In this document: one piece after another, positions 103 to 16,901 of the stretch
Layout: every line of letters starts with the position of its first letter
Position numbering within the stretch: position 1 is the first letter of the stretch
Origin: an uncultured Deinococcales bacterium
GTDB taxonomy: Bacteria > Deinococcota > Deinococci > Deinococcales > JAAFIG01
NCBI GenBank assembly: GCA_964247135.1
Contig: CAXTTL010000098.1
Coordinates: 1 to 16,901, forward strand
Length of the DNA: 16,901 nt
Reading direction: 5' to 3'
Program-made: the position numbers and the translations under genes
The notes under the pieces: generated by a model
The model's database searches: none
Told to the model about the DNA's origin: nothing
The model's input: only the letters and a program-made list of their open reading frames with translations

Positions 103-131
103 TCCCTAAGCTCGAGCCTGAGCAATCACGG

Positions 132-165
132 CTGTAATGGGTTCGTAACGTCTGCGAATCATCCT
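132..165 (+). promoter_or_regulatory. Putative activator-dependent promoter: 11-bp-period GTAAY direct repeat plus -10-like hexamer
   Basis: CTGTAAT (132-138) and TCGTAAC (143-149), 10 nt, then CATCCT (160-165). It lies upstream of the DoxX gene, and the same geometry recurs at three other sites. Confidence 0.55.
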
Positions 166-189
166 GAAGGCGAACAAAGGAGATTTAAC

Positions 190-780
190 ATGATGTCCGC
201 AACCCCAATCCCCGTTCGCAAATCGCACCTCGAGATTCCAGAACCCAACATTTCTAAATTTCTTTTCGCCGACACGCGTCTCGCCCCACTTTGGACGCTG
301 GTTCGCTTGTACGTCGGTTATGAATGGCTGCTGGCTGGCTGGGGAAAACTCACCAATCCTGCCGGAGTCTGGGTCGGAGAGAAAGCCGGAACTGCCGTAG
401 CCGGCTTTCTCAATGGCGCACTGACCAAAACCGATGGTGCGCATCCAGACGTTCAAGGCTATTTTGCTTGGTTCATTCAGCACATTGCCCTGCCAAATGC
501 GACCCTTTTCAGTTATCTGGTGACCTTTGGCGAGATCGCCGTCGGCATCGCCCTGATTCTGGGTCTGTTCACGGGCATCGCCGCATTTTTTGGCGGTTTC
601 ATGAACGCCAGTTACCTGCTGGCGGGCACGGTTTCGACCAACCCGATGTTGTTTATTCTGGCGACGCTGCTGGTGCTGGCATGGCGCACCGCAGGCTACT
701 GGGGTTTGGATTACTGGCTGCTGCCTCGAATCGGTGTTCCTGGTGCTCCAGGACCGCTCGAGCCAACCACCAACCCTTAA
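190..780 (+). CDS. DoxX family membrane protein (TQO small subunit DoxD-like)
   Basis: 196 aa. Motifs RLYVGYEWLLAGWGK, GEIAVGIALILGLFT, MNASYLLAGTVSTNP and AGYWGLD are typical of DoxX/DoxD. SD AAAGGAG upstream. Confidence 0.85.
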   Translation: MMSATPIPVRKSHLEIPEPNISKFLFADTRLAPLWTLVRLYVGYEWLLAGWGKLTNPAGVWVGEKAGTAVAGFLNGALTKTDGAHPDVQGYFAWFIQHIALPNATLFSYLVTFGEIAVGIALILGLFTGIAAFFGGFMNASYLLAGTVSTNPMLFILATLLVLAWRTAGYWGLDYWLLPRIGVPGAPGPLEPTTNP

Positions 781-859
781 GTTAAACCGTCTCTCTCGAG
801 CGACCCATGTTCTCTTGACACTTCTGCACTAAAGTCTTGCTTCATGCGGAGGTCAGGAC

Positions 860-3241
860 ATGACGAACAATGCGCAACTTGAAACCACATCACTTGAGCC
901 TTCAGAACTTCAACTTATAGACGCCTACTGGCGAGCCGCGAATTACCTTTCGGTTGGACAGATTTACCTCTTGGACAACCCATTGCTGCTCGAGCCTTTA
1001 AGTTTGGCACACGTCAAACCCAGGTTGCTCGGGCATTGGGGAACGACCCCAGGGCTGAACTTTATTTATGCGCACCTCAACCGTTTGATTCGCAAGCACG
1101 ACGTGAATGCCATGTTCATTGCGGGTCCAGGTCACGGTGGTCCTGGCGTGGTGGCGAACACTTACCTCGAGGGAACCTACAGCGAGGTTTACCCCAATAT
1201 TTCGACGGATGCGGCGGGAATCAAACGGCTGTTCAAACAGTTTTCGTTTCCTGGGGGCATTCCCAGCCACGTCGCGCCAGAAACGCCAGGTTCGATCCAT
1301 GAGGGCGGCGAACTCGGTTATGCGCTGGTTCACGCTTACGGCGCGGCGTTCGACAATCCCGATTTGCTGGTCGCCTGCGTGATCGGAGACGGTGAAGCCG
1401 AGACCGGACCGCTCGCCGCCAGTTGGCACTCGAACAAATTCCTCAATGCAGCCCGCGACGGCGCGGTGCTGCCGATCCTGCATTTAAACGGTTACAAGAT
1501 CGCCAACCCAACCGTGCTCTCGAGGCTCGCGCCCGAAGAGTTGACCAAGTTGCTCGAGGGTTACGGTTACAAACCATTTTTTGTCGAGGGCGACGATCCG
1601 AGCGTCATGCATGAGTTGATGGCGCAAACGCTTTATCAGGTTTGGCTCGAGATTATTGAGATTCAACGTGAGGCTCGAGCCTCTTCCTCGAGCGCCCGAC
1701 CCCATTTTCCGATGATCGTGCTGCGTTCGCCCAAAGGCTGGACTGGACCCAAAACCGTCGATGGCAAACCCGTCGAAAACACCTGGCGAGCACATCAAGT
1801 GCCGCTCGATAATATTTTCAAGAACCCAGAGCATTTGGCGCAACTCGAGGCGTGGTTGAGAAGTTACCGCCCCGAAGAATTGTTTGACGCAAACGGAAAA
1901 CTCCTACCCGAACTCGCCGCACTCGCGCCGACAGGCGAACGGCGCATGGGCGCAAATCCGCACACCAACGGCGGCTTGCTGCTGCGCGACCTGAAACTGC
2001 CGAACTTCCGCGATTATGCCCTAACCGTCGAACAACCTGGCACAACATCGGGCGAAGCCACGCGGGTGCTGGGCAAATTCTTGCGCGACGTCATGAACGC
2101 CAACCTCGAGTCAAAAAACTTTCGGGTCTTTGGTCCAGACGAAACCGAATCAAACCGTTTGGGGGCGCTGTACGAGGCGACCAACAAAGCCTGGGAGCTG
2201 CCAATTCTTTCCACCGACGAACACCTGGCGCTCGAGGGTCGCGTCATGGAGGTGCTTTCGGAGCATCTGTGCCAGGGTTGGCTCGAGGGGTATCTGCTGA
2301 CCGGACGGCACGGTTTATTTTCGTGTTACGAGGCGTTCATTCATATCATTGACAGCATGGTCAACCAGCACGCCAAATGGCTCAAAACCACCCGTGGAAT
2401 TCCGTGGCGGCGACCCATTGCGGCGCTGAATTACCTGCTGACCTCACACGTCTGGCGGCAAGATCACAATGGGTTTTCGCATCAAGACCCTGGTTTTATC
2501 GACCACATCATGAACAAAAAACCCGAGGTGGTGCGCATTTACCTGCCGCCAGACGCGAACACTTTGCTGTCCGTGACCGACCACTGCCTGCGCAGCCGCA
2601 ACCGCATCAACGTGATCGTGGCGGGCAAACAACCCGCCCCGCAATGGCTGTCGATGGACGCCGCGATCAAACACTGCAACGCCGGCATCGGCATCTGGAC
2701 TTGGGCGAGCAACGACGCCAACCTCGAGCCTGATGTCGTGATGGCGTGCGCGGGCGATGTGCCGACGCTCGAGACGCTGGCGGCGGTGGACTTGCTGCGC
2801 CAGCATTTTCCAGACCTGAAAATTCGGGTGGTCAATGTGGTGGATTTGATGACGCTTCAACCCGAGAGTGAGCATCCGAGCGGGCTTTCGGATCACGAGT
2901 TTGACAGTTTGTTCACCACCGACAAGCCCATTATTTTCGCCTATCACGGCTACCCGTGGTTGATCCATAGGCTGACCTATCGCCGCACCAACCACGACAA
3001 CTTGCACGTGCGCGGTTACAAAGAGGAGGGCACGACCACCACACCCTTTGACATGACGGTTTTGAACGACCTTGATCGCTTCCATTTGGCGGGTGACGTG
3101 ATCGACCGCGTGCCAAGGTTGCAAGCCATCGGTGGGCATTTCAAACAATTCTTGCGCGACAAACTGGTCGAGCACGGCGAGTACATTCGGCAGCACGGCG
3201 ACGACCTGCCCGAGGTGCGCGATTGGGTCTGGCGGTACTGA
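860..3241 (+). CDS. xfp: Xylulose-5-phosphate/fructose-6-phosphate phosphoketolase
   Basis: 793 aa. Hallmark motifs [31 protein letters not shown], the TPP-binding GDGEAETG...[29 protein letters not shown] and [21 protein letters not shown] upstream. Confidence 0.98.
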
Positions 3242-3327
3242 ATTAATTGAAGCTCGAGGTTTGCGCGTTGAAGGGAATCGGGATTGAATCGTAGTTACTT
3301 TCGCACAAGATCAAGGAGTCCTAACCC

Positions 3328-4449
3328 ATGACCGAGCAACAATCCCAATCCAATCTGAACCGACGAAATGTACTCAAACTGTTGGCGGCTGCTGGCGTGA
3401 CCGCAATCGGTGGATACGCCCTTTACGAGTATGCGCCGTGGCAAAATTACGATCAGCAAGCCGACCAGGCGCGGCAAGGCTTTGGCAACGACCTCGCCCC
3501 ATCAGCCCAGATGTTGGAACTGGTTCGCTTTGCCTCCTTGGCAGCCAGCGGTCACAACACCCAGCCTTGGAAGTTCGCAATCACGCAGAACGCCATCGAA
3601 ATTCACCCAGACTTAAGCCGTCGCCTGCCAGCCGTTGACCCGAACGACCGCGAACTCTGGATCAGTTTGGGTTGTGCGCTCGAGAATTTACTGATTGCCG
3701 CTCGAGCCGCAGGATTTTCGCCAAAGGTCAGCTACCCGAACGCGACGGATTTTATTCGTGTTGATCTGACCACCGACACCGCACAGAAAAGCGCATTGCT
3801 GGGCGCGATTGTCTTGCGCCAGAACACCCGTTCGATGTATGACGGCAAGCCACTGGAGCGCAGCGCACTGAACCAACTGCAATCCTTGCCGCTCGAGCCA
3901 GGAATAAATTTGAATTTTGAACTGGGGGCGGCTGGGTTGGAAACCGTGCTGGAATACGTCAATCGGGGCAATTTGAGCCAGTACGCCAACAAAGATTTTC
4001 TAAACGAGTTGATTGCTTGGCTGCGGTTCACCAAAAAGGAAGCCCTGGCGTCTGGTGATGGTCTGTACTCGGGCGCGTCTGGCAATCCGCAAGTCCCGCG
4101 TTGGCTTGGGCAGATGGTTGTGGCTGGCACAAAACCGCAAGCCCAAGCCGATAGCGATGCCCAGAAATTGCGCAGTTCTTCGGGCGCGGTGGTTGTCACT
4201 TCAGAATCGGACGATAAAACAGCCTGGGTACGAACCGGACAGGTGTACGAACGCCTGGCGCTCGAGATGACTTCGCTGAATATTAAATCGGCATTCCTGA
4301 ACCAACCCATCGAGGTCGCCGAGGTTCGCGGAGAGTTTCAAAGCGCTTTAAAACTCGAGACGGCGCTGCCGCAATTGTTGGTGCGTTTTGGTCACGCCGA
4401 GCCGATGCCAAACTCTTTGCGCCGCCCATTACAAGACATTCTGTTGTGA
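3328..4449 (+). CDS. Acg-family FMN-binding nitroreductase-like protein with twin-arginine N-terminus
   Basis: 373 aa. Motifs AASGHNTQPWKF, DPNDRELWISLGCALENL, RQNTRSMYDG, FLNQPIEV and PQLLVRFG. The N-terminus LNRRNVLKLLAAAGVTAIGG is Tat-like. SD AAGGAG. Confidence 0.85.
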   Translation: MTEQQSQSNLNRRNVLKLLAAAGVTAIGGYALYEYAPWQNYDQQADQARQGFGNDLAPSAQMLELVRFASLAASGHNTQPWKFAITQNAIEIHPDLSRRLPAVDPNDRELWISLGCALENLLIAARAAGFSPKVSYPNATDFIRVDLTTDTAQKSALLGAIVLRQNTRSMYDGKPLERSALNQLQSLPLEPGINLNFELGAAGLETVLEYVNRGNLSQYANKDFLNELIAWLRFTKKEALASGDGLYSGASGNPQVPRWLGQMVVAGTKPQAQADSDAQKLRSSSGAVVVTSESDDKTAWVRTGQVYERLALEMTSLNIKSAFLNQPIEVAEVRGEFQSALKLETALPQLLVRFGHAEPMPNSLRRPLQDILL

Positions 4450-4463
4450 TGCTCGAGCACAAA

Positions 4464-4497
4464 TAGTAATGCGTTGGTAATGATGACCTCGTAACCT
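4464..4497 (+). promoter_or_regulatory. Putative activator-dependent promoter (GTAAY repeat plus -10)
   Basis: TAGTAAT (4464-4470) and TGGTAAT (4475-4481), 10 nt, then TAACCT (4492-4497). Confidence 0.6.
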
Positions 4498-4664
4498 CGG
4501 CTCGAGATTCTTGACCCCGTGCAAGATTCTGAATTCTTCAAAATTCGTGGGTGAAGAAACGCAAGTCTCGAGGTCAAAATCAAACGAAGCACGTCACCGC
4601 CTAACTCGAGGCACGGTGCGGGAAATGCGTGATTTTCGGACTGAAATAAGAAGGGGCACACATC

Positions 4665-5624
4665 ATGAAAGCGACAGACCGCACTTTGATTCAACAAGAT
4701 GTTCCACCAGACAAGGCAGCACAGAATAGCAAATTGCCCCGCAGCCGCTGGGCGTACATTCTGATTGGGCTTGGCATATTTTTTCTGATCGAGAAAATTG
4801 GTTTCAACACCAATGGAATTTGGAACGCCATCGGCACGTGGTTTCCGCTGGTCTTCATTGTTTTGGGAATCGACTTTTTAACCCGTTCCTATCCTTGGGG
4901 GCGACAACTGACCCTTGGCTTGGTGGTCATCACAGCCTTGTTTATGCTGATTTGGGGTTTAAACCAACCGGCGATTCCGCAAGGCTTTAGGCAAGAAACC
5001 GTAAGTGAAGCCATCACCGCAGTTCGAGCCGAAATTCAACTGAGCACCACGGTTGGGAAGCTCGAGGTCAGCGCCAACAACACCGAAAAATTGATTGATG
5101 GCAAGCTCGAGTTAAACGGTGGTGATCGTCTCGAGCGCGAGGTTTCTACGCGCGACCAAACCCAATTTGTGCGGCTCGAGGCGGTCATGACTGGCGCGAA
5201 CGTTGGCTTGCCAACGTTTTTAAACGACCGCAACTCGAGTTGGGTCGTTGGTCTTTCGCCAAACGTCCCGCTCGCGCTGAAAATCAAAACGGGTGTTGGC
5301 AACTCGAGACTCGACTTGCGCGGCTTAAAGGTCACCGCTTTAACCTTCAACGGTGGCGTTGGTCAAACCAGCATCACGCTGCCCGCTTTGGGTCGTGTGA
5401 CCGCCCGAGTTGAAAGCGGTGTCGGCGAAACCAACATCTTCATTCCACGCGGCATGGAATCTCGGGTTCGCGTCTCGGGTGGGCTTGGTGCCGTCCAAAT
5501 TTCGGGCGATTACCGGCGAATCGGCGATGTGCATACCTCGAGCGGTTTTGAGACCGCCAGCAACCGCGTCGAACTCGAGGTGCAGGGCGGCGTTGGACGT
5601 ATTTCAGTTGAGACAGAACGCTGA
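4665..5624 (+). CDS. LiaF-related membrane protein: N-terminal TM region (DUF5668/LiaI-LiaF-like) plus Gly/Val-rich beta-repeat C-terminal domain
   Basis: 319 aa. Three TM helices including ILIGLGIFFLI and WFPLVFIVLGI. The C-terminus has repeated beta-strand motifs (KTGVGNSRLDL, GGVGQTSITLP, SGVGETNIFIP, GGVGRISV). Confidence 0.7.
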   Translation: MKATDRTLIQQDVPPDKAAQNSKLPRSRWAYILIGLGIFFLIEKIGFNTNGIWNAIGTWFPLVFIVLGIDFLTRSYPWGRQLTLGLVVITALFMLIWGLNQPAIPQGFRQETVSEAITAVRAEIQLSTTVGKLEVSANNTEKLIDGKLELNGGDRLEREVSTRDQTQFVRLEAVMTGANVGLPTFLNDRNSSWVVGLSPNVPLALKIKTGVGNSRLDLRGLKVTALTFNGGVGQTSITLPALGRVTARVESGVGETNIFIPRGMESRVRVSGGLGAVQISGDYRRIGDVHTSSGFETASNRVELEVQGGVGRISVETER

Positions 5625-5674
5625 ATCAGATTGAATCTTTTGGCAGGAATGCTCGAGAAGAAAGAAGGAACCCC

Positions 5675-6223
5675 ATGAAAAACGTGCTCGTCACCTACGG
5701 CAGCAGGTCAGGTTCGACCGCCGAGATCGCCAACAAAATCGCCGAGGTGCTGCGAACCAAAGGCGAGAACGTCACCGTTCTGCCCGTCGCCAGCGTGACC
5801 GACCTGAACCCGTACAACGCCGTGGTGCTCGGCAGTGCCGTCTATGTCGGTCACTGGATGACAGAGGCGGTGGACTTCCTTAAGCTCCACGAGGAGGCGC
5901 TCTCGACACGACCCGTTTGGATTTTCTCGAGCGGACCGACCGGTGCTGGCGATCCGGTCGAACGGATGCACGGCTGGCGATTCCCAGAGGCGCAGCAAGC
6001 CATCTTTGAGCGCATCAAACCCCAAGACATCGTTTTGTTTCACGGCAAGATCGACATGCACGACCTGAACTTCGGTGAGAAAATCATGCTCCGTGCGCTG
6101 GGCGCTCCGACCGGTGACTTCAGAGATTGGAATGCGATCAGCGCCTGGGCGGAGGGCATCGCGCAAGTGCTGCGTCCGCTCGAGGTTGTGACGGTGGGGC
6201 AAAACCCATCCATGCAACCCTGA
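5675..6223 (+). CDS. Flavodoxin domain protein (HemG/Flavodoxin_5-like)
   Basis: 182 aa. FMN loop VLVTYGSRSGSTAEIA, plus AVVLGSAVYVG, PVWIFSSGP and GDFRDWNAISAWA. SD AAGGAA. Confidence 0.88.
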   Translation: MKNVLVTYGSRSGSTAEIANKIAEVLRTKGENVTVLPVASVTDLNPYNAVVLGSAVYVGHWMTEAVDFLKLHEEALSTRPVWIFSSGPTGAGDPVERMHGWRFPEAQQAIFERIKPQDIVLFHGKIDMHDLNFGEKIMLRALGAPTGDFRDWNAISAWAEGIAQVLRPLEVVTVGQNPSMQP

Positions 6224-6326
6224 CCTTGTACGACTCGGGTGTCGATCTCGAGCCAGAAAATATTCGTTGTGACTTGGGTGCAATGTTCGGTTCGGGCACA
6301 ATCGACTTTCAGGGAAGGAAATTTTT

Positions 6327-6926
6327 ATGAAACGCAATGAGCCAATGTTGATTCCCGCGATCTTGCTGCTGATCGTCGGGGCGCTGGGGCTGCTCAGCAA
6401 GTTCGGATTCTTAACGGCATTCTCGAGCCTCGCATGGGGAAGCCTGTTCACCATCGGTGGTCTCGGATTCCTGGCTTGGTTCGCCCGCGACCGAGCACAA
6501 TGGTGGGCGTTGATTCCCGCCTCGAGCCTGATCGGGTTGGCGCTGACCTTCCTGATGGGTGAAAACTGGGGCGGCACCATCTTTCTCGGTTGCATCGGAC
6601 TGGGCTTCGCGGGCATTACCATGCTCAAACGCGATTTCTGGTGGGCGACCATTCCGGCTGGCACGCTGCTGACCCTCGCGCTGGTCAGCCGTTTGGGCGC
6701 TGCCGGCGGCACCGTGTTGTTCCTCGGGCTGGCGGCGACATTCGCCGTGGTCTGGCAACGTTCGCATCGCTGGGCAATCTATCCGACCATCGGCTGTCTG
6801 GCGATGGCGGCATTGACCGCAGACTGGCTGACCGGAATCTGGGGCATCGTTTGGTCGCTGGCGCTGATCGGGCTTGGCGCGTACCTGCTGCTGCGCCCAC
6901 ATCGGGACGGATCGGTTCGGCAGTGA
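6327..6926 (+). CDS. Hypothetical polytopic membrane protein
   Basis: 199 aa with about 7-8 hydrophobic segments and an internally repeated motif (WWALIPA / WWATIPA / RWAIYPT). Purine-rich SD upstream. Confidence 0.8.
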   Translation: MKRNEPMLIPAILLLIVGALGLLSKFGFLTAFSSLAWGSLFTIGGLGFLAWFARDRAQWWALIPASSLIGLALTFLMGENWGGTIFLGCIGLGFAGITMLKRDFWWATIPAGTLLTLALVSRLGAAGGTVLFLGLAATFAVVWQRSHRWAIYPTIGCLAMAALTADWLTGIWGIVWSLALIGLGAYLLLRPHRDGSVRQ

Positions 6927-6953
6927 CTGGACGCCCCGAGAGAAAGTGAAACC

Positions 6954-7157
6954 ATGAACCTCAAAGACAAACTCCATGAACAGATTGACAACATGCCGCT
7001 GCCCGACCTCGAGTTGTTCGATTTGATTTTTGAACAGCGCCGCCGAACCTTGGAAGCTCGAGTGCCACGCGATGCACAAGAAATTGCAGAATTTAGGCGT
7101 TTGCTCAAGCAACTGACCGAGCCGCGTTCGGCTGTCGCTTCTGGACAGGAGTCATGA
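6954..7157 (+). CDS. Small hypothetical helical protein (67 aa)
   Basis: Fills the gap between two genes. Its stop overlaps the next start (ATGA at 7154-7157). Charged, helix-like composition. Confidence 0.6.
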   Translation: MNLKDKLHEQIDNMPLPDLELFDLIFEQRRRTLEARVPRDAQEIAEFRRLLKQLTEPRSAVASGQES

Positions 7158-7510
7158 TGGAAATTGTCAAAACGATTTTTTTGTTCGTTCACTTTTTGGG
7201 GCTTGCCGCATTGATCGGCGGCGCGTTTGTGCAATGGAACGCTGCAACCAAACAAGCCTCGCCCACCATGATCTGGGGCGCTCGAGTGCAACTGCTGACG
7301 GGCATCATTTTGCTCGGATTGGTCGAGATGACCGAACAAAACGTGCATCATCTCAAGTTCACCGTCAAATTGGTGGTAAACCTGATTGTCGCTGTCATTC
7401 TCGAGTCCAGCCGTAAAAGTCTTTCAAACGCGGGGTTTCAGGCGGCAATGGGACTTTCGATTCTGAACGTGGCATTGGCAATGTTCTGGACGACCAGCAG
7501 CGCGGGTTAA
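7154..7510 (+). CDS. Four-TM hypothetical membrane protein
   Basis: 118 aa. Motifs FVHFLGLAALIGG, GARVQLLTGIILLG and HLKFTVKL. SD AGGAG upstream. Confidence 0.8.
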   Translation: MMEIVKTIFLFVHFLGLAALIGGAFVQWNAATKQASPTMIWGARVQLLTGIILLGLVEMTEQNVHHLKFTVKLVVNLIVAVILESSRKSLSNAGFQAAMGLSILNVALAMFWTTSSAG

Positions 7511-7539
7511 AAGTTGAACATCATTGCGGGAGGTATCCG

Positions 7540-7881
7540 ATGCGCGATTTGATGCGCTCGCTGTTGTTTATCAAATCAATTCATACAGCCATTTTTATCG
7601 TCATGAATGTATGTTTGGGAATTCTGATGCTCGAGGTTTTCGTGACCAGAATATCTTATCTTTCATGGATTGCCATTGCCGCACTGCTGACCGAATCCGT
7701 TGTGCTGGTCGCCAACGGTTGGCGTTGTCCGATTTCAATTTACGCCGAAAAGGTCGGGGCGACCAACGGGCACGAAAGCGATATTTTTCTGCCAATGTGG
7801 TTCACAGACCGAATTCCTCTTGTTTACGGCAGCCTTCTGGCAATCACACTGCTGTTCTTTGTGATGAAGTTGTTTCGCTAA
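7540..7881 (+). CDS. Small membrane protein (possibly DUF2784-related)
   Basis: 113 aa. SD GGAGG upstream. Motifs IKSIHT, NGWRCPI and SDIFLP, with 3 TM segments. Confidence 0.75.
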   Translation: MRDLMRSLLFIKSIHTAIFIVMNVCLGILMLEVFVTRISYLSWIAIAALLTESVVLVANGWRCPISIYAEKVGATNGHESDIFLPMWFTDRIPLVYGSLLAITLLFFVMKLFR

Positions 7882-7979
7882 ACCAAATCCAAGATGCCGT
7901 TTTGGGCTTGATACGGGTTAAAAATCAATACTCGAGAATCCAATTCTCGCAGAAACTAGAGTTGAGGGGAGGCAAGAAG

Positions 7980-9473
7980 ATCAGACCGATTGAAATCCTG
8001 TTGTTCCTTGCCAATCTGCTGACCTTCTTTGTCTTAACAGTTTCGCTGCCCCGTACAATGTTCTGGATGCGTTACGCAGCCCCTGTCGCGCTGCTGATTG
8101 CCGTCGTACAGTTGCTGCTGGAAGGTTCGCGTTGGCAGATGTTCCCAGCTTACGCCATGAGCGGGCTGTTCTTTGTGGTCTGGTTGTTGCAAAACTTTTC
8201 AGCCTCGAGCGGGACGGTTGGACATTTTTTGATGTACTGGCTTGCCGCTTTGTTGGGCGTACTCGGGCTGGTGGTTTCTGCGGTTTTGCCAATCATTCTT
8301 CCCGTGTTCCGCTTCTCGCAGCCAAGCGGGACGTATCCGATTGGCACGTTGACCTACCACTGGCTGGACGCAGCTCGCCAGGAGATTTTCAGCACCGATT
8401 TGAGGGCGAGTCGTGAGTTGATGGTGCAAATCTGGTATCCAGCCAAAGCAACCACCTCAACATCACGTGCGCCTTACCTCGAGGATGCCGACGCCATTTC
8501 CTCGGCGCTGGCACGACTTAAACATTTGCCAGGGTTTATCTTGTCGCATTTGAAATACGTCACCACGAATGCCATTGCGTCCGCGCCCGTGGCAGATGAC
8601 CAGCCCAATTATCCAGTGCTGATCTTTCTCGAGGGGGCGAGCGGCTTTCGCCAGATGAACACGTTCCAAGTCGAGGCACTGGTTTCGCACGGTTATGTTG
8701 TCGTCGCCATCGACCAGCCGTACACCGCCGCGTCGGTCATTTTCCCAGATGGACACCGCACAAGCTCAATCCCGCTCGAGCAGATGAAAACCTTGATTCA
8801 CCAAAGTTACAGTCCAGCCAAAAAAGCACCGATATTGAATGGTCGAACGCTCGAGAAAGGCATAATTCCATATCTGGCGCAGGATGTGACGTTCACGCTC
8901 AATCAACTTGCCGCACTGAACCGAGCCGACCCGAACGCCATCTTGACTGGACGCCTCGATTTAATGCACGTTGGCACGTTTGGCGTCTCTCTGGGCGGCA
9001 TTGTCGCTGGTGAAGCTTGCCGACTCGAGCCACGCCTTCGGGCTTGTCTGGTCATGGACGCCCCAATGCCGACCGAGGTGGTTCGGCTTGGTTTGCAACA
9101 ACCGACCATCTGGATCACCCGAGATGCCCAAACCATGCGACTCGAGAGACGCCGCTCTGGCGGTTGGTCAGAGCTGGACATCAGCGAAACCCTGAGCACC
9201 ATGCGGGCGACATTCGAGCACATGCAAGGCGACGGTTACATTGTGCAAATCCCTGGGATGTTCCATGTCAACCTGACCGACGTTCCGTATTGGTCTCCAA
9301 TTTTTTCGTGGTTGGGCATCACTGGACCAATTGATGGACGGCGGGCGTACAGCATCATCAACGCTTACTCGTTGGCATTTTTTGATCACTACCTGAAGGG
9401 TCGCTCGGCAGCGCCGCTCGAGAATTTGGCAAAACAATTCCCCGAAGTGCAGCTCGAAACACGTCGTCCTTAA
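7980..9473 (+). CDS. Membrane-anchored alpha/beta hydrolase (PAF-acetylhydrolase-like); inferred start is ATC
   Basis: Four N-terminal TM helices, then PSGTYPIG, RELMVQIWYPA, YPVLIF, LVSHGYVVVAIDQPY, nucleophile elbow GVSLGG, and GMFHVNLTD. SD GGAGG (7968-7972) lies 7 nt before an in-frame ATC (7980). The 7524 start in the ORF track overlaps another gene. Confidence 0.85.
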   Translation: MRPIEILLFLANLLTFFVLTVSLPRTMFWMRYAAPVALLIAVVQLLLEGSRWQMFPAYAMSGLFFVVWLLQNFSASSGTVGHFLMYWLAALLGVLGLVVSAVLPIILPVFRFSQPSGTYPIGTLTYHWLDAARQEIFSTDLRASRELMVQIWYPAKATTSTSRAPYLEDADAISSALARLKHLPGFILSHLKYVTTNAIASAPVADDQPNYPVLIFLEGASGFRQMNTFQVEALVSHGYVVVAIDQPYTAASVIFPDGHRTSSIPLEQMKTLIHQSYSPAKKAPILNGRTLEKGIIPYLAQDVTFTLNQLAALNRADPNAILTGRLDLMHVGTFGVSLGGIVAGEACRLEPRLRACLVMDAPMPTEVVRLGLQQPTIWITRDAQTMRLERRRSGGWSELDISETLSTMRATFEHMQGDGYIVQIPGMFHVNLTDVPYWSPIFSWLGITGPIDGRRAYSIINAYSLAFFDHYLKGRSAAPLENLAKQFPEVQLETRRP

Positions 9474-9547
9474 ATCTATCGAGGCTTGAGGTTTGCCTGA
9501 CCCACACCATAAATTTCAGACTCGAGCATCCCAGGCGTGCGGACATG

Positions 9548-9598
9548 ACGCCGTGGTAACGCCGTGGTAACGCCGTGATAACGGTCATGCAAGATGCT
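9548..9598 (+). promoter_or_regulatory. Triple 11-bp tandem repeat plus -10-like hexamer
   Basis: ACGCCGTGGTA (9548-9558), ACGCCGTGGTA (9559-9569) and ACGCCGTGATA (9570-9580). GATGCT (9593-9598) lies 10 nt after the last half-site (ATAAC, 9578-9582). Confidence 0.6.
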
Positions 9599-9840
9599 GC
9601 ACTGGCGAGAAGCGAAAGTAAATTTGAACGCGCTCGAGTGATACAGAAAAGGGGTGAAATCTGGTTTTCAGTCCATCCGTTCGATCAAACCCAGCCTCAA
9701 TGCTCCCTCAGCTTCTCTTTCGTATTCGGACAGATTGAGAGCCTAGGTTTAACTCAATCTGGTCGCTATTTGTGGGTTTCTCGAGTCTACACCTGACCCG
9801 TTGCCCATCTGCAAGATGATCAGATTGAAAGGAGTGACAC

Positions 9841-10269
9841 ATGGATACGAACCTGATGGCTCGGGCTTCGGTAACAGTCGAATCCACCAATTCCGAGGTT
9901 TGGGACGCACTCGTGAACCCCGAAGCCATCAAGCAATACTATTTCGGCACGAACGCCGTCTCGGACTGGCTCGAGGGAAGCTCGATTGTCTGGAAGGGCG
10001 AGTTTAAGGGCAAACCCTACGAGGACAAGGGCGTGATTCTTCGGCTTGAACCTGGAAAGGTACTCCAGTACAGTCACTTCAGCCCACTTTCTGGGCTGCC
10101 GGACAAGCCTGAGAACTACCACACCGTGACCATCGAGCTGTCTGGCGAGGGGAACCAAACTCGGATTTCGCTAACCCAGGACAACAATTCAACCCAAGAG
10201 GCTCGAGAACACTCCGAGCAGAATTGGGGGACGATGCTCGAATCCCTGAAGAAATTTCTGGAACAGTAG
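9841..10269 (+). CDS. SRPBCC/AHSA1 (START-like) domain protein
   Basis: 142 aa. Motifs EVWDALVNPEAIKQYYFG, EPGKVLQYS and NWGTMLESLKKFLE. SD AAAGGAG. Confidence 0.9.
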   Translation: MDTNLMARASVTVESTNSEVWDALVNPEAIKQYYFGTNAVSDWLEGSSIVWKGEFKGKPYEDKGVILRLEPGKVLQYSHFSPLSGLPDKPENYHTVTIELSGEGNQTRISLTQDNNSTQEAREHSEQNWGTMLESLKKFLEQ

Positions 10270-10330
10270 AACCGATCAAACTCGAGCTTTAGAGGGCAGG
10301 CTGAGCCTAAGTGGTGCAAGGAGAACAAAC

Positions 10331-10879
10331 ATGAGAAAACTGATCATCAACGAGATGCTGACCCTGGACGGCGTCATGGAAGCACCAGAGAACTGGTCTG
10401 GCCCCTACCAAAACGATGAAATAGCACAGGAGAACACGGCGGGCATGGGCGCTTCCGATGCAATGCTCTTGGGACGCGTGACCTATGAAGGCTTTGCAGC
10501 ATTCTGGCCTCACCAGACCGATGACAAGACCGGAATCACCGACTACTTGAACAAAATACCCAAGTTCGTCGTCTCCTCGAGCCTGAAAAAAGCCGATTGG
10601 GTCAACACGACGATTTTGAGTGGTGACGCCGTAGAGGAAATCACCAAGCTGAAGCAGCAACCTGGCAAGAGCATCACGGTCACTGGGAGCGCCAAGCTTG
10701 TCCAGTCGCTGATGCAAGCTGACCTGATCGACGAGTATTCGCTTTTGGTCTTTCCCATCGTTCTGGGGAAAGGGAAGCGTTTGTTCCACAACGGTATTGA
10801 CTCGAGCCTGAAGCTCATCAAATCCAAGGCGTTCAGTTCTGGCGTGGTTTCGTTGACGTATCAGCCTGCGAAAAAGTGA
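10331..10879 (+). CDS. Dihydrofolate reductase-like protein (RibD C-terminal domain family)
   Basis: 182 aa. Motifs TLDGVMEAP, LLGRVTYE, GSAKLVQSL and DLIDEYSLLVFPIVLGKGKRLF. SD AAGGAG. Confidence 0.9.
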   Translation: MRKLIINEMLTLDGVMEAPENWSGPYQNDEIAQENTAGMGASDAMLLGRVTYEGFAAFWPHQTDDKTGITDYLNKIPKFVVSSSLKKADWVNTTILSGDAVEEITKLKQQPGKSITVTGSAKLVQSLMQADLIDEYSLLVFPIVLGKGKRLFHNGIDSSLKLIKSKAFSSGVVSLTYQPAKK

Positions 10880-10915
10880 ACGCTCGAGATTCTGTCTGAA
10901 AATCTGAGGGATTGA

Positions 10916-10959
10916 GACGCTCGAGAAATTCTTGTGCCTTTAGAAATTTCTCGAGCGTC
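10916..10959. repeat. Perfect 15-bp inverted repeat (hairpin) with CTCGAG in both arms
   Basis: GACGCTCGAGAAATT (10916-10930), 14-nt loop, AATTTCTCGAGCGTC (10945-10959). Intergenic, with no clear U-tract. Confidence 0.8.
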
Positions 10960-11041
10960 ACTTCCAGCGAATTTGGTTTTACCCTCTTGATGCTCGAGAT
11001 TGAAAAAGTGCGTGATGTCGGCTTTAAGGGCAAGAGGAATT

Positions 11042-11470
11042 ATGAAAAAAGCGGCAGAAAAGAATTCAAGTATCACAAACGTCAAAGCAAGGCTTTCGAT
11101 GCTGTGGATATTTGTGATACTCAACATGTTCTACGCGGATATTCTTTCTTTGATGGATTCCTCGTCAGCAATCCGCACACGCATGGTGGGAATCCCAATG
11201 TCTTCAGGGTTTTTATTGGCGGGTGCAGTGGTGATGGAAACCGTGATCGCTATGATTATTCTGTCTCGGTTATTACCCTATAAGGCAAATCACTGGGCAA
11301 ACATCATCGTAGCCGCATTGAATATCGTTGCCGTCGTAACTGGCGGTCACGGTCTCTACTACATCTTTTTTGCAACCATTGAAGTCCTGTCGATGCTGCT
11401 CATTGCTTGGCTCGCTTGGAGCTGGTCTGAAGTTGAGCTTATCGAGGAAGATCAAAATGAATTCAATTAA
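11042..11470 (+). CDS. DUF6326-like membrane protein
   Basis: 142 aa from the ATG at 11042 (SD AAGAGG). Motifs RLSMLWIFVILNMFYADIL, LSRLLPYKANHWANII and YYIFFATIE. Confidence 0.75.
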   Translation: MKKAAEKNSSITNVKARLSMLWIFVILNMFYADILSLMDSSSAIRTRMVGIPMSSGFLLAGAVVMETVIAMIILSRLLPYKANHWANIIVAALNIVAVVTGGHGLYYIFFATIEVLSMLLIAWLAWSWSEVELIEEDQNEFN

Positions 11471-12155
11471 ACAAACCGTAAGAATGACAGGATTGCTTTA
11501 TCTCGTTTTCATGCTGACTTTAATTTTTTCGTCGTTTGTTCGATCTAGAATTATTGTGTTCAGAAATGTTGTCACTACTGCCAATAATATTATGGCTTCC
11601 GAGTGGCTGTTTTGCATCAGTTTCATGAGTGAGATACTTTCTGTGGTGTTTTTTCTTTTGGCAGCTTGGGGTTTATATGTAATATTAAAATCAGTTGACA
11701 AAAATTTTGCTTTACTGTTTTTATTATTGAACTTGGGTGGCGTCATCATAGAGTGTATTAATATGCTTAACTTATTTGTTGCCCTACTGCTTTTGAGCGG
11801 TACAGATTACTTAAAAATATTCCAAGAAAGTCAACTACAATCCTTGGCGATGTTATTTCTCAACTTGTATCAGAATGGGTTCATGATTGCCCAAGTATTT
11901 TATGGTGCTTGGCTGCTTCCACTTGGTTATTTGGTTTTCAAGTCGGGCTTTCTGCCCAGAATTTTGGGCATATTATTGATGGTTGATTGTATTGGCATCC
12001 TGGTCTGGTTTTTTCAGTTTTTCCTTCTTCCAAATTACCCAGCAATATCTTATCCAAGTTACGTGATTGGTTTTATTGCAGAATTATCACTTGGTTTATG
12101 GCTTTTGATTAAGGGTGTAAACAAACAGAAACCAAATTTAATTGAGGCTAGATGA
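11457..12155 (+). CDS. DUF4386-like polytopic membrane protein
   Basis: 232 aa from the ATG at 11457 (SD GAGGA), overlapping the upstream gene by 14 nt. Motifs RMTGLLYL, TANNIMASE, FYGAWLLPLGYLVFKSGFLPRILG and AELSLGLWLLIKG. Confidence 0.82.
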   Translation: MNSIKQTVRMTGLLYLVFMLTLIFSSFVRSRIIVFRNVVTTANNIMASEWLFCISFMSEILSVVFFLLAAWGLYVILKSVDKNFALLFLLLNLGGVIIECINMLNLFVALLLLSGTDYLKIFQESQLQSLAMLFLNLYQNGFMIAQVFYGAWLLPLGYLVFKSGFLPRILGILLMVDCIGILVWFFQFFLLPNYPAISYPSYVIGFIAELSLGLWLLIKGVNKQKPNLIEAR

Positions 12156-12319
12156 TGTCCAGAAACAAAATTTTCTAATCGTACACTGCCAGTTTGACGC
12201 AATTCGGCGAAAGACTGGTGACCCTCGAGCCACCGTCTGGCTTTGGTCTCGGTGGTCGCGGCGCTGTTGTCCGTGTTTAGTTGCTCGAGCGCGAGGGTAC
12301 AGGCTGAGAGGGTTGGATC

Positions 12320-13126: not shown

Positions 13127-13181
13127 GCTTCATCTTCATGAAACTCTCGAGCCTCTTGGCACTGATCAACAGGAGGGCGAC

Positions 13182-13898: not shown

Positions 13899-13926
13899 TT
13901 TGCTGACAAACAGCCCCACTGACGTT

Positions 13927-13960
13927 TGGTAACACTTTGGTAATGCCGAGTCTTTAGGCT
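13927..13960 (+). promoter_or_regulatory. Putative activator-dependent promoter (GTAAY repeat plus -10)
   Basis: TGGTAAC (13927-13933) and TGGTAAT (13938-13944), 10 nt, then TAGGCT (13955-13960). Confidence 0.65.
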
Positions 13961-14008
13961 TCAACTCGAGATAAAAACCCCTGCGAGGGTTTCTCGAGGA
14001 AGGTTGTT

Positions 14009-14827
14009 ATGAACCTAGCCATTAAAATCTTGTTCGTTCTATTCTCGAGCCTGCTGGCTTTGGTGGGGCTGGTATTTGTTGGTTTGCAAGTCAAACCTGC
14101 ATCCTTCCCAGCCCTTACTTCAAACCACCCCAAGCTCGAGACGATTCCCTTGCCGGCTGGATTGCCTGCGCCAGTCGTGAAGTTTTACCGAAAAATATAT
14201 GGTGATCGAATTCCCTTGATTCATTCGGTGGTGATTTCTGGACGGGCAAGCATTCGTCCCGTTGGACCGATTAACATTCCGGCGCGGTTTCGTTTTACGC
14301 ACAAAGCGGGTCAGGATTACCGCCATTACATCGAAGCCACGATTTTTGGAATCCCGATTCTCAAAATCAACGAATCGTACCTGAAAAGCTCGAGCCGCCA
14401 AGAAATGCCTTGGGGGACAACAACAAACGATCCTCGAGCGAATCAGGCGGCGAATCTTGGCTTGTGGGCGGAAACCCTTTGGTATCCCAGCGTTTTTTTG
14501 ACCGACCCTCGGGTGCAGTGGAACGCCGTGGACGATGTGACCGCAACCCTGACTGTACCGTTTGAGAAAAGCACCGAAACGTTTATTGCACGTTTTGATC
14601 CAATCACTCACTTGCTCACATACCTCGAGTCGATGCGCTTCAAGACCGATCACAAAGTCTTGTGGATCAATGAGGCTCGGGTTTGGGACGATGTTGGCGG
14701 GGTTACGGTTCTAAAAGAATCTGCTGTGATTTGGATGGATGACGGCAAACCTTGGGCGAATTTTGAGGTTGAAGAAATCGAATTCAACACCGATGTCGGC
14801 AAAACCATCGGCGGTACGGGCTTGTAA
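14009..14827 (+). CDS. N-terminally anchored protein, DUF6544-like
   Basis: 272 aa. N-terminal TM, then GLPAPVVKF, LWAETLWYPSVFL and VQWNAVDDVTA, with a beta-rich C-terminus. SD GAGGAAGG. Confidence 0.72.
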   Translation: MNLAIKILFVLFSSLLALVGLVFVGLQVKPASFPALTSNHPKLETIPLPAGLPAPVVKFYRKIYGDRIPLIHSVVISGRASIRPVGPINIPARFRFTHKAGQDYRHYIEATIFGIPILKINESYLKSSSRQEMPWGTTTNDPRANQAANLGLWAETLWYPSVFLTDPRVQWNAVDDVTATLTVPFEKSTETFIARFDPITHLLTYLESMRFKTDHKVLWINEARVWDDVGGVTVLKESAVIWMDDGKPWANFEVEEIEFNTDVGKTIGGTGL

Positions 14828-14842
14828 AACCCGAGGTGAAAT

Positions 14843-15223
14843 ATGTCCAAATGGATGCTGTACTTGGCTGGATTCGTGTTGATCGCGCACGGACTGATTC
14901 ACCTGATGGGAACGACGGTTTACCTGCGCCTGGGTGATGTTCAAGGTTTTGCTTACAAGACCACGTTGCTCGGCGGGCGCTGGGACGTTGGCGCTGCTGG
15001 CATCGGTATTTTTGGCACGTTGTGGGCGGTCGCCGCCCTGGGTTTTATCGTCTCGAGTGTCGGAATGGTGACTGATAAAAGTTGGTGGCAACCCGTGCTG
15101 ATTGCGGTCAGCGTTTTCTCGCTGGTCTTGACGGGTTTGGACTCGAGCCTCGCCTTTGCTGGGGTGATTCTAAACCTTGTCATTTTGGCGCTTTTGTTTT
15201 GGTCGCGCCGCTCGAGTATCTGA
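14843..15223 (+). CDS. Four-TM hypothetical membrane protein
   Basis: 126 aa. Motif LIAHGLIHLMG. SD GAGGTG. Starts 15 nt downstream of the previous gene. Confidence 0.8.
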   Translation: MSKWMLYLAGFVLIAHGLIHLMGTTVYLRLGDVQGFAYKTTLLGGRWDVGAAGIGIFGTLWAVAALGFIVSSVGMVTDKSWWQPVLIAVSVFSLVLTGLDSSLAFAGVILNLVILALLFWSRRSSI

Positions 15224-15270
15224 GCATCCCGAAATTCGTTGCAATCACCGATCAGAACTCGAGGAGCAAG

Positions 15271-15456
15271 ATGTTGAATAATGCCGTTTCACAACCCCTT
15301 CAAAACTCGAGCAGTGACGTTACAGAATTGAGAAGTCAAGCGCGTTTGGGCACAATGCCGATTGTGCCAGCGTCTTTGCAACTCATGCGCATTTGCGGGA
15401 TCGCGCTGGGCACAATTCAGATGATTGCCCGAGCCGTGCGTCGGTTGGGCGCATGA
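15271..15456 (+). CDS. Putative small protein (61 aa) translationally coupled to pyruvate kinase
   Basis: SD GAGGAG (15261-15266), ATG at 15271. Its TGA overlaps the pyk ATG (ATGA at 15453-15456). No recognisable family. Confidence 0.45.
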   Translation: MLNNAVSQPLQNSSSDVTELRSQARLGTMPIVPASLQLMRICGIALGTIQMIARAVRRLGA

Positions 15457-16901
15457 GTTCCAAGAAGCCAAGAATAAACTCGGCGCTGCAAGATCAGTAC
15501 GCCCGCATCACCGCCGACGTGACCCGTTTGCGTGACGAGGCGGTGAGGCTCGAGCAGGATTTCGCTTCCGACTTGAAACAAATTCGCGCCCCGTACCTCG
15601 AGAGCGCCCGCAACCTTGTGCATTACCTGGCGTTGCGGCGCAAGGATTTGCGAACCACCCAGCTAGAGCTGCAACGCCTTGGGCTGAGTTCGCTCGGCAG
15701 GATGGAAGCGAACGTCCTGCCAACCCTAGATGCGGTGCTGACCGCCCTAAACCGTCTGTCCGTCTCGAGCTTTCCAAACAACCTCGAGCCGATGCCTGAC
15801 CCCAGGGCGGGTGACCGCCTGCTGAAAAACCACACCGCAAAAATGTTCGGCGCAAGTCCAAAGCAGCGCTCGGTTCGGATCATGGTCACGATGCCGAGCC
15901 AAGCCGCCAACGATGACGGTTTGATCGGGCAACTGCTCGAGTTTGGCATGGACATCATGCGGATCAACTGCGCCCATGACGACGCGGACACCTGGTCGCA
16001 GATGCTCGAGCATCGCCGCGCCCAAACCGCACGCCTCGGGCGGACGTGCCGCGTGGTTTTTGATCTGGCTGGACCGAAATTGCGCACCGGTCAGATCGTC
16101 CTCGGTCCAGAGGTGCTCAAAATCAAACCGACCCGCGACGCGTTGGGGCGTGTGAACATTCCGGCTCGAGTGATCCTGACCAGTTCAACACTCGAGCCGC
16201 AGGTGGGCACAGGGCTTGGTTTGCAACGCATTCCAGTCGTCGAGGCATCGCTCCTCGAACACTGTCAGCCTGGTGACCATTTTGAGCTGACCGATGCCCG
16301 AGGTCGCGCTCGAGGGCTAGGGGTGATCGAAGTCGCTGATCAGGAGATCATTTGCACCACGGATCGCACCGTTTACCTGACCTCCGAGATGCCGATTCAT
16401 CTGCACCGCAAGGGCAAGCCTGTTTTGAAGGGTCAGATTGGCACACTGCCCGCCATCCCGCAATTCCTCGAGTTGAGTGTCGGGGATGTCTTGATCTTGA
16501 CGCGCGAGGCGATTCCTGGCGAGAACGCTAGCCTCGAGGCTGGCACCATAAAGCCAGCCCACATTGCCTGTACGCTGCCCGAGGTCTTCAACGATGTCCA
16601 GGTCGGTCAGCGCATCTTTTTTGATGACGGCAAGATTTCTGGACGCATCCGCAAAGTCGGGGCGCAGCGGCTCGAGGTCGAAATCACGCACCTCGTGGGC
16701 AGAACAGCAAAGCTTCGCGCCGAGAAGGGCATCAATTTGCCGGATACGGATTTTCATTTGTCCGCCCTGAGCAGCCAAGACCTCAAGGATTTGCAATTTA
16801 TTGTCGAGCACGGCGATATGGTCTCGCTCTCGTTCGTGCGCAGCCGCCATGACATCGAGGCGCTGATCGCCGAACTCGAGCGTCTGGGCGGAGGTCAGAT
16901 C
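15453..16901 (+). CDS. pyk: Pyruvate kinase, long form with N-terminal extension (3' partial)
   Basis: Open frame from ATG 15453 to the window end. Motifs SARNLVHYLALRR, LGLSSLGR, RIMVTMP, GMDIMRINCAH, DLAGPKLRTG, FFDDGKI, EKGINLP and SFVR. Absent from the ORF track because there is no stop in the window. Confidence 0.93.
   Translation, partial: MSSKKPRINSALQDQYARITADVTRLRDEAVRLEQDFASDLKQIRAPYLESARNLVHYLALRRKDLRTTQLELQRLGLSSLGRMEANVLPTLDAVLTALNRLSVSSFPNNLEPMPDPRAGDRLLKNHTAKMFGASPKQRSVRIMVTMPSQAANDDGLIGQLLEFGMDIMRINCAHDDADTWSQMLEHRRAQTARLGRTCRVVFDLAGPKLRTGQIVLGPEVLKIKPTRDALGRVNIPARVILTSSTLEPQVGTGLGLQRIPVVEASLLEHCQPGDHFELTDARGRARGLGVIEVADQEIICTTDRTVYLTSEMPIHLHRKGKPVLKGQIGTLPAIPQFLELSVGDVLILTREAIPGENASLEAGTIKPAHIACTLPEVFNDVQVGQRIFFDDGKISGRIRKVGAQRLEVEITHLVGRTAKLRAEKGINLPDTDFHLSALSSQDLKDLQFIVEHGDMVSLSFVRSRHDIEALIAELERLGGGQI

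Follow-up and report, generated by a model that had tools for sequence, protein, structure and literature searches.

The window analysed here is a stretch of 16,901 nucleotides (contig CAXTTL010000098.1, hereafter C98) from the draft genome of an uncultured bacterium, and the element in question is the six-base palindrome CTCGAG, which is dispersed over its whole length. A directional, DNA-level force keeps about one CTCGAG per 100-200 bp everywhere in the chromosome, and does so across the family to which the genome belongs. We have hardly any doubt that CTCGAG is a real, lineage-wide iterated palindrome outside the cyanobacteria, comparable to the highly iterated palindrome HIP1 found within them. 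The window contains exactly 98 copies (111..16880, no strand), the first at 111-116 and the last at 16875-16880. In 200 dinucleotide-preserving shuffles the mean was 3.69 (standard deviation 1.97, maximum 10) and 0 of 200 reached 98, which corresponds to an excess of ~24-27-fold. A first inspection of the letters alone (the sequence-only reading) had counted about 98 copies by hand, which is exact, and had put the enrichment at about 20-fold, slightly below the measured value. Its three examples of reading frames are also correct, namely CTC GAG at 989, GCT CGA GCC at 1674 and TCC TCG AGC at 1687, and 12 of the 13 positions that it placed between genes are borne out; the remaining one, 13146, falls inside an open reading frame (ORF) of uncertain start. 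With Pfam-supported gene bounds, 71 sites of the window are coding (44/8/19 by frame) and the other 27 lie within 2,816 non-coding bases.

The draft genome (5,091,702 bp in 386 contigs, 52.65% G+C, 84% complete) holds 33,925 CTCGAG in total, that is, one per 150 bp or 6,660 copies per Mb, and the observed/expected ratio (O/E) is 24.8x in a zero-order, 35x in a first-order and 14x in a second-order model. CTCGAG is the commonest hexamer of the genome, more than two-fold ahead of runners-up that are overlaps of CTCGAG itself, and no other 6-bp palindrome rises above 3.7x genome-wide, so that it stands out in O/E among words of the same length in the way that Robinson and Elhai use to recognise a HIP. 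The enrichment, which the sequence-only reading could see on one contig, is not confined to it: all 297 of the 297 contigs longer than 5 kb carry CTCGAG at 2.56-10.5 sites/kb, 825 of 825 5-kb windows carry 8-64 copies, and the O/E stays at 23-26 whichever G+C class of 2-kb windows is taken.

The excess resides in the DNA and is not a consequence of the encoded proteins. In a set of crude calls (4,416 genes, 86% of the genome), the non-coding DNA holds 5,221 CTCGAG in 725,708 nt, which is 7.19/kb and 33.8x at its 46.9% G+C, compared with 6.57/kb in coding DNA. The coding sites occupy all three frames, with 17,995 read as CTC GAG, 4,180 as xCT CGA Gxx and 6,558 as xxC TCG AGx. We made ten synonymous shuffles within genes, preserving each protein and the codon usage of each gene, and these retained 3,974 +/- 49 coding sites where 28,659 are observed (7.2x); frame by frame, the excess is 5.8x, 14.3x and 11.5x. 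A by-product of codon, dipeptide or amino-acid preference (for Leu-Glu, or for the codons CTC and GAG) would fit the 63% of coding sites that are in-frame Leu-Glu, but this explanation is already refuted, its probability being negligible, by the non-coding density, by the excess over shuffles that is largest in the two frames not reading Leu-Glu, and by the lack of enrichment of Glu-Leu. The sequence-only reading had maintained that codon or dipeptide bias alone is insufficient and that a DNA-level process writes or preserves the hexamer genome-wide. Both statements hold: coding and non-coding DNA are equally dense, the excess survives protein- and codon-preserving shuffles, and the sites are conserved in every frame and between genes, as described below.

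The sequences around the sites are nearly random. The flanks carry at most 0.07 bit per position, the strongest signals being G at -1 and C at +1 (39%) and A at -3 (37%), and 21% of the sites extend to a palindromic 8-mer, compared with ~25% by chance. Because the flanks are near-random and the 8-bp palindromic extension is not above chance, CTCGAG is not part of a repetitive extragenic palindromic (REP) element or a miniature inverted-repeat transposable element (MITE); its dispersal over non-coding DNA and all coding frames without conserved flanks is that of a HIP. The same trait is present throughout the family. The octamer GCTCGAGC has 838-4,448 copies in 18 of 18 other family genomes (5 genera), where the reversed control CGAGCTCG has 0-165, and among 151 genomes sampled evenly from the order, all 15 that belong to the family are rich in GCTCGAGC. 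In a closed 5.09-Mb family chromosome, 21 of 21 evenly spaced 20-kb samples are rich, with 63-111 sites each (9.6-16.8x). Parts of window positions 1-10000 are also covered by contigs that stem from four runs of two other studies and are 90-99% alike, and 0 of their 40 best-supported differences fall within a CTCGAG; shares were small (0.07-0.09) in 5 sequencing runs of 2 studies, and no RNA data set was listed. Ribosomal protein L2 was not found in the assembly. A draft of 386 contigs, in which composition-based binning could favour motif-bearing contigs, might raise the suspicion of an assembly, k-mer-binning or library artefact, or of a dispersed REP/MITE-like repeat carrying the hexamer, but this too is already refuted and can practically be set aside: the uniform enrichment of the closed chromosome does not come from composition-based binning, all 18 relatives and all 15 family members of the order sample share the trait, the contigs of independent studies leave the sites intact, and the flanks do not behave as those of a repeat.

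Beyond the family, the motif varies strongly within the order, as judged from single 20-kb samples with G+C-corrected O/E. The family of the studied genome stands at 12-32x, with CTCGAG as the commonest hexamer in 5 of 5 samples; three genera of a second family (63-64% G+C) stand at 6-10x, again with CTCGAG as the commonest hexamer, and two further families at 2.3-6.9x. A species-rich genus of 66% G+C has 0 CTCGAG in 20 kb, and a genus of ~2.2-Mb, 68% G+C genomes is an avoider with 4-19 GCTCGAGC per genome. In this ~2.2-Mb genus (G022, G026 and G025; L319-L321) a TaqI nuclease lies beside a TaqI-like methyltransferase, and TCGA is scarce (20 in 20 kb); owing to this TaqI system, the genus avoids GCTCGAGC while sister genera accumulate it. 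On taxonomy the evidence disagrees: the named proteins closest to those of the genome belong to Chloroflexota or Anaerolineales, whereas kinship, G+C and the TaqI system suggest a Deinococcales-like order with genera resembling Thermus (the ~2.2-Mb genus), Meiothermus and Deinococcus, which is the more likely reading. The sequence-only reading mentioned an abundance of CTCGAG in Meiothermus-like genomes, and this is plausible in view of the 63-64% G+C genomes at 6-10x, whose genus identity we infer. Public viral contigs (L224, L211, L213, L189 and L245) of 58-69% G+C with 4-7 CTCGAG/kb (14-20x), a few of them without GAGCTC, may be phages of CTCGAG-rich hosts; this set was selected for the motif (triple sites), and the matches listed are mainly high in G+C and reach up to 20x, from which no rate can be derived.

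To follow individual sites, 395 kb of the congener G005 was aligned to the genome, and 282 kb aligned at 85.4% identity; all values of this comparison concern that one genome pair. There are 1,539 shared sites, 423 sites private to the genome and 221 private to the congener. Retention of CTCGAG is 0.73 between genes, compared with 0.42 for all other hexamers, and 0.81, 0.71 and 0.79 in frames 1, 2 and 3, compared with 0.46 in each frame; the identity of single alignment columns is 0.83 between genes and 0.72 for third codon positions. The alignment of orthologs that the sequence-only reading had proposed thus yields a retention of 0.71-0.81 against 0.42-0.46 for other hexamers, a conservation between relatives beyond background such as defines a HIP. 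In addition, turnover is compensatory, lost sites being compensated by nearby private ones. Private sites of the two genomes form 75 pairs within 60 bp, compared with 50.1 +/- 5.4 under label permutation, and 112 pairs within 100 bp, compared with 80.7 +/- 7.1, and neither number is attained in any of 2,000 permutations. Under a null weighted by local divergence, the proximity remains at z = 2.6-3.5. There is no excess at a distance of 15 bp or less (11 vs 9.4), and misalignment is therefore not the source of the proximity.

The sites are also locally even. The 33,539 gaps between CTCGAG have a mean of 148 bp and a median of 108 bp, and relative to a geometric law gaps shorter than 15 bp occur at 0.25-0.39x, those of 50-200 bp at 1.15-1.34x and those of 300-800 bp at 0.73-0.86x, with an excess tail above 1 kb. 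The variance/mean of counts in 100-300-bp windows is 0.80, compared with 1.00-1.08 for five control hexamers, and counts become over-dispersed above 1 kb. Pair distances showed no discrete period, only harmonics of the analysis window. The longest CTCGAG-free stretch of the genome measures 2,644 bp, and of the 47 gaps longer than 1.2 kb genome-wide most are low in G+C; the longest are islands of 27-40% G+C, which are probably recent acquisitions. Within the window a single long stretch lacks sites (10999..12223, 1.2 kb, 39% G+C, with a DUF4386 gene at 11370-12155), and it likewise looks like younger, foreign DNA. Density is flat across genes at ~6.5-7/kb but rises to 11-12.5/kb within 40 nt downstream of stop codons (~1.8x that of gene bodies), a peak that may reflect terminators or simply DNA under the weakest constraint, and to 8-9.4/kb over the last 60 nt upstream of starts. 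An example of the post-stop peak is the intergenic site at 3253..3258, 12 nt past the stop of a phosphoketolase gene; two other intergenic sites lie directly past stop codons, at 4452..4457 (stop at 4449) and at 10883..10888 (stop at 10879).

The DNA-level force overrides synonymous-site drift and, at variable positions, the protein sequence as well. Leu-Glu is the most over-represented dipeptide of the proteome (23,278 vs 9,918 expected, 2.35x; Glu-Leu 1.01x), and CTCGAG spells 77% of all Leu-Glu. At 211 in-frame sites private to the genome, the congener has another dipeptide at 156 (FE 27, LK 25, LQ 12, and others) and a synonymous Leu-Glu at 55. The phosphoketolase gene of the window (860..3241, plus strand; XFP_N, XFP and XFP_C domains) carries 13 CTCGAG and was compared with 80 distant and 3 congeneric homologs. 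Eight of the 13 sites stand at positions where the 80 distant homologs mostly have other residues. Leu-Glu at four in-frame sites is also present in at least 67 of the 80 distant homologs, and at six other Leu-Glu sites the homologs mostly have RE/KE, FI/FT, AE/DE, AE/AD, PD/RD and GE/AE. The in-frame CTC GAG at 989..994 encodes Leu-Glu at residue 44; in the 80 distant homologs RE (38) or KE (11) stands there and none has CTCGAG, which is present in 3 of 3 congeners. At 1166..1171 the in-frame Leu-Glu is ancestral, with LE in 79 of 80 distant homologs, and only the spelling has changed, 2 of 3 congeners having CTGGAA. The in-frame Leu-Glu at 2231..2236 faces PD (29) or RD (7) in distant homologs. 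In the second frame, the site CTC TCG AGA at 1519..1524 encodes Leu-Ser-Arg where 62 of the 80 distant homologs have LAR and 11 have LGR, and the private site TCC TCG AGC at 1687..1692 encodes Ser-Ser-Ser where congeners have Gly-Met-Thr or Gly-Met-Asn, distant homologs mostly have G-x-T, and 0 of 80 have the site. The frame-1 site GCT CGA GCC at 1674..1679 (Ala-Arg-Ala) is kept as GCTCGAG in 3 of 3 congeners. This phosphoketolase has relatives in a wide scatter of phyla, of which the best is 77% identical, and none of the 80 named loci of its homologs is enriched in CTCGAG (maximum 5.7x, median 1.0x).

Compensatory turnover and local evenness favour selection or a recombination-type drive over a site-autonomous mutational bias. 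The reading that we lean towards, with somewhat more doubt than confidence, is that such selection or drive acts on local CTCGAG density and that CTCGAG marks resident DNA in cis. The mark would be read by a DNA-processing factor specific for CTCGAG, for instance in the uptake or recombination of kindred DNA or in the control of a nuclease. HIP1 is now proposed to play such a part, and uptake sequences are known to. The low G+C of the longest CTCGAG-free stretches counts in favour of a mark of resident DNA. In a bolder form, the whole family would keep a 6-bp 'self' mark at a nucleosome-like ~150-bp spacing without a cognate methyltransferase, by means of a novel CTCGAG-reading recombination, uptake or nuclease-control system whose force has rewritten ~13,000 dipeptides of the proteome, as an independent invention of the HIP principle; we think this rather unlikely.

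Several points weigh against selection or drive on a resident-DNA mark. Evenness and compensatory turnover rest on one genome pair and on crude gene calls, and biased repair with a distance-dependent efficiency could mimic part of the spacing signal. A CTCGAG reader or writer was not found in a search that left competence genes outside, so that the function is drawn from analogy only, and in a draft genome that is 84% complete a missing enzyme gene is possible. To our knowledge, a 6-bp palindrome at 1/150 bp is shorter and far denser than known uptake sequences or Chi sites. A caveat on the excess itself comes from the high-order Markov comparison proposed by the sequence-only reading, in which the O/E of CTCGAG shrinks to 3.45 at third order and 1.24 at fourth order. 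It counts only formally, because such models are built from CTCGAG itself and the ratio is circular: CTCGAG accounts for 88% of the CTCGA pentamers and for 62% of the TCGA tetramers of the genome.

Host genomes normally avoid the targets of restriction enzymes. CTCGAG is not under-represented in this way, but 24.8x over-represented, and the sequence-only reading had suggested GAGCTC, which contains both CTCGAG half-sites in swapped order, as a comparison. Unlike CTCGAG, GAGCTC is wholly absent, with 0 copies in 5.09 Mb where 1,369 are expected, and it is likewise absent from 395 kb of the congener and from 420 kb of the closed family chromosome; two CTCGAG are consequently never 6 bp apart. 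This absence, the reshaping of the proteome and the nearby replacement of lost sites had all escaped the sequence-only reading. The genome encodes a SacI-like system (L095:320-2244, contig C320 of G000), in which a D12-class methyltransferase adjoins a SacI-family nuclease. Other palindromes are nearly eliminated, namely GGGCCC (1 copy), CGGCCG (3), AGGCCT (4), CGTACG (5), GGATCC (7), CCGCGG (11), CAGCTG (15) and GCATGC (17). The O/E is 0.01-0.02 for GGCC (0.02), CCGCGG and CAGCTG, and nucleases of these specificities are encoded in the genome; several of the avoided palindromes match its NgoPII-, Eco29kI-, PvuII-, MvaI/BcnI- and NotI-like nucleases (L084, L085, L087, L088 and L089), and for the remaining ones a matching system was not found in the assembled 84% of the genome. 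Two C5 methyltransferases adjoin the NgoPII-like (GGCC) and Eco29kI-like (CCGCGG) nucleases, and N4/N6 methyltransferases adjoin the MvaI/BcnI-, PvuII- (CAGCTG) and NotI-like nucleases. Further genes encode two MmeI-like enzymes, a 798-aa HsdM-like protein, a methyltransferase-SNF2 fusion and a 466-aa methyltransferase. The last of these lies beside a prolyl-tRNA synthetase gene (L091/L096, contig C4 of G000) and is intact there, has two stop codons in the congener G005 (L097), and is reduced to its first 24-26 codons in G001 and G002; these remnants indicate a modification gene decaying within one genus.

The main rival explanation is a methylation-coupled biased repair, as in Elhai's model of HIP1 or of the very-short-patch type, in which a methyltransferase marks CTCGAG, a mismatch nuclease or glycosylase converts near-cognate words, and the sites build up as a by-product of mutation. 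The hexamer is a well-known target of Type II systems, and such a process would also account for the high conservation of the sites. The enzymes that it calls for were looked for by profile search of the genome (PF04555, PF07669, PF00145, PF01555, PF02384, PF03852, PF02086 and PF12950), which in the 84% covered found nothing CTCGAG-specific; no Vsr (PF03852) and no TaqI_C domain was found in the genome. The Pfam XhoI profile had no match in the genome or in 5 avoider genomes, but as it matched no control genome either, this negative is weak. The recognisable methyltransferases of the genome adjoin nucleases of other specificity (NgoPII, Eco29kI, MvaI/BcnI, PvuII, NotI-like and SacI) or are patchy. 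Three methyltransferases without a nuclease partner were considered as CTCGAG enzymes and rejected, being patchy among 30 relatives or half of a contig-split gene. In relatives, matches of ~500 aa to the Eco57I family proved to be Type I HsdM subunits with HsdS neighbours, and one family genome carries a TaqI_C methyltransferase of 574 aa, inserted between genes that are direct neighbours in the studied genome.

Elsewhere in the order, we found a 582-aa methyltransferase with Eco57I and TaqI_C domains (L310:2840-4588) between the gene of a Na/Ca exchanger and one housekeeping gene, which looks orphan. Among solved structures it is closest to M.BseCI (ATCGAT; full length, E = 2.7e-23) and M.TaqI (TCGA). 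Its orthologs occur in 11 of the 151 order genomes (6 genera), and all 11 carriers have at least 940 GCTCGAGC, which speaks for the repair explanation. However, they are present in 0 of 15 family genomes, where the enrichment is strongest, and in only 3 of 12 genomes of the Meiothermus-like genus; since kin are not independent, the enzyme is a lead rather than a test. A similar balance applies to the Vsr-like DUF559, which has several copies in 16 of 18 family genomes, with a maximum of 11, but does not follow the trait: it was rejected as a partner because 3 of 3 genomes of the avoiding genus carry it, whereas it is missing from 3 of 3 sampled genomes of another family, of which two are clearly enriched. 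Several DUF559 genes of the family have a large Eco57I-type methyltransferase gene no more than a few kb away.

Single-mismatch neighbours of CTCGAG stand at 0.5-1.7x expectation, with transitions slightly favoured, and the two that contain the generally avoided CTAG stand at 0.08x; where the congener differs, the changes are spread equally over positions 1/6, 2/5 and 3/4 of CTCGAG. Neither the neighbour O/E nor the congener differences show a sink of near-cognate words or a deamination hot spot: the neighbours are not depleted, and transitions are as frequent at position 1 as at positions 2 and 3. These values speak against repair of this type. In addition, a site-autonomous process does not predict compensatory turnover. 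The sequence-only reading had linked the motif to a cognate methyltransferase and named methylation-directed repair among the possible causes, and neither idea gains support, with no such methyltransferase and no Vsr found in the 84% complete genome, the candidate family found in 0 of 15 family genomes, and no depletion of neighbours. We therefore consider methylation-coupled repair unlikely, and the reader or writer in this family does not seem to be a recognisable methyltransferase.

As a further alternative, CTCGAG may be an architectural site, bound by an abundant nucleoid-associated or chromosome-organising protein as a dimer and kept by selection about every 150 bp. The relatives NTCGAN, CNCGNG and CTNNAG are not enriched, and the requirement for all six bases fits a dimeric protein reading a palindrome; the locally even spacing, the nearby compensation and the flat density across genes fit it as well. 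On the other hand, a candidate protein was not found, the pair distances have no discrete period, known nucleoid proteins do not need exact hexamers, and the avoidance of the motif by other families of the same order is left unexplained. This makes an architectural role quite improbable, and a resident-DNA mark under selection or drive remains the reading that we favour.

Two features of the window concern gene bounds and gene content. The ORF that begins with TTG at 7524 (7524-9473) is probably too long: its homologs measure 471-537 aa and match no more than the C-terminal 72-79% of it. Translation therefore probably begins close to 8058, which places the site at 7931 between genes. The window is variable between 3244 and 13998: in the congener G005, the counterpart of 1-3243 is followed directly by that of 13999-15543, other congeners have pieces of 4460-7865 on other contigs, and one metagenome contig joins 3239 to 4320, without the nitroreductase-like gene.

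Among known systems, the uptake sequences of Pasteurellaceae (uptake signal sequence, USS) and Neisseriaceae (DNA uptake sequence, DUS) are over-represented, even and lineage-specific, intrude into coding sequence, and are thought to spread by biased uptake and recombination. They are non-palindromic 9-12-mers at ~1 per kb, with an uptake specificity that has been shown experimentally. CTCGAG has the same strong excess and even spacing within one lineage. The likeness to HIP1 (GCGATCGC), drawn by the sequence-only reading, extends to abundance, conservation, distribution over a whole lineage and, at the local scale, apparently to evenness of spacing. HIP1 is, like CTCGAG, a short G+C-rich palindrome in tens-fold excess in genic and intergenic DNA, conserved beyond background, lineage-wide, of unsettled function and, as CTCGAG apparently is too, evenly spread (PMC4390886, PMC5861425, PMC13756078). 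In contrast to the octamer HIP1, CTCGAG is a hexamer and belongs to a different phylum, and its 6,660 copies per Mb compare with 300-2,700 per Mb quoted for HIP1 (PMC4390886, Table 2). HIP1 is accompanied by the orphan methyltransferases DmtA and DmtC, a counterpart of which was not found in the CTCGAG family, and the effect on the proteome (Leu-Glu 2.35x) is a feature of the CTCGAG system. HIP1 is reported to correlate with DNA-transfer and competence genes and to enhance transformation, and a role as a mark has been argued (PMC13756078); Elhai's model explains it by methylation-guided repair (PMC4390886). As alternate HIPs of single cyanobacteria the same survey lists GGCGCC (Calothrix PCC 7103), GCsGC, rCCGGy, GGGATCCC and TCGATCGA, some of them six-base palindromes that take the place of HIP1, with ~500-2,500 copies per Mb, each paired with a methyltransferase of matching specificity (PMC4390886); CTCGAG, on the other hand, spans a family of at least 5 genera, and in the studied genome, at 84% completeness and with specificities not checked against REBASE, a cognate methyltransferase was not found.

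XhoI/PaeR7I-type systems share the recognition sequence, but an XhoI-family nuclease or CTCGAG-type methyltransferase was not found in the genome, the XhoI profile negative being weak. In Nocardia, an orphan CTCGAG methyltransferase is reported together with a clustering of the motif at the replication origin (PMC4752239), a local oriC cluster in contrast to the genome-wide excess in the studied family. CTCGAG is also listed among the methylated motifs of some hot-spring lineages in a preprint (bioRxiv 10.64898/2026.06.24.734251). It is absent from the text of Elhai's survey of alternate HIPs (PMC4390886). In the literature searched, with REBASE, subscription journals and supplements outside the search, we found no report of genome-wide over-representation of CTCGAG; 'highly iterated palindrome' and CTCGAG never appeared together, and with Meiothermus, Anaerolineae or Chloroflexi the hexamer appeared only as a cloning site or a listed methylated motif. 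What is new is thus a hexameric HIP outside the cyanobacteria, ~2.5x denser than Elhai's densest figure for HIP1, whose cognate methyltransferase was not found.

The role of HIP1 has been open for ~30 years and studied only in cyanobacteria, and a second, independent and denser palindrome makes the question a comparative one. The order also holds milder cases, apparently including cultured genera, as well as avoiders, so that gene families can be correlated with motif density, and the cultured relatives are open to methylome typing, transformation and mutation. As a strong lineage signature, the hexamer matters for binning and host prediction. The commonest excess dipeptide of this proteome exists because of a DNA word, which illustrates the extent to which a force on the DNA can reshape proteins and matters for codon and dipeptide statistics and for protein models trained on such genomes. 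If the family does keep a methyltransferase-free mark of self, it could expose the mechanism of HIPs.

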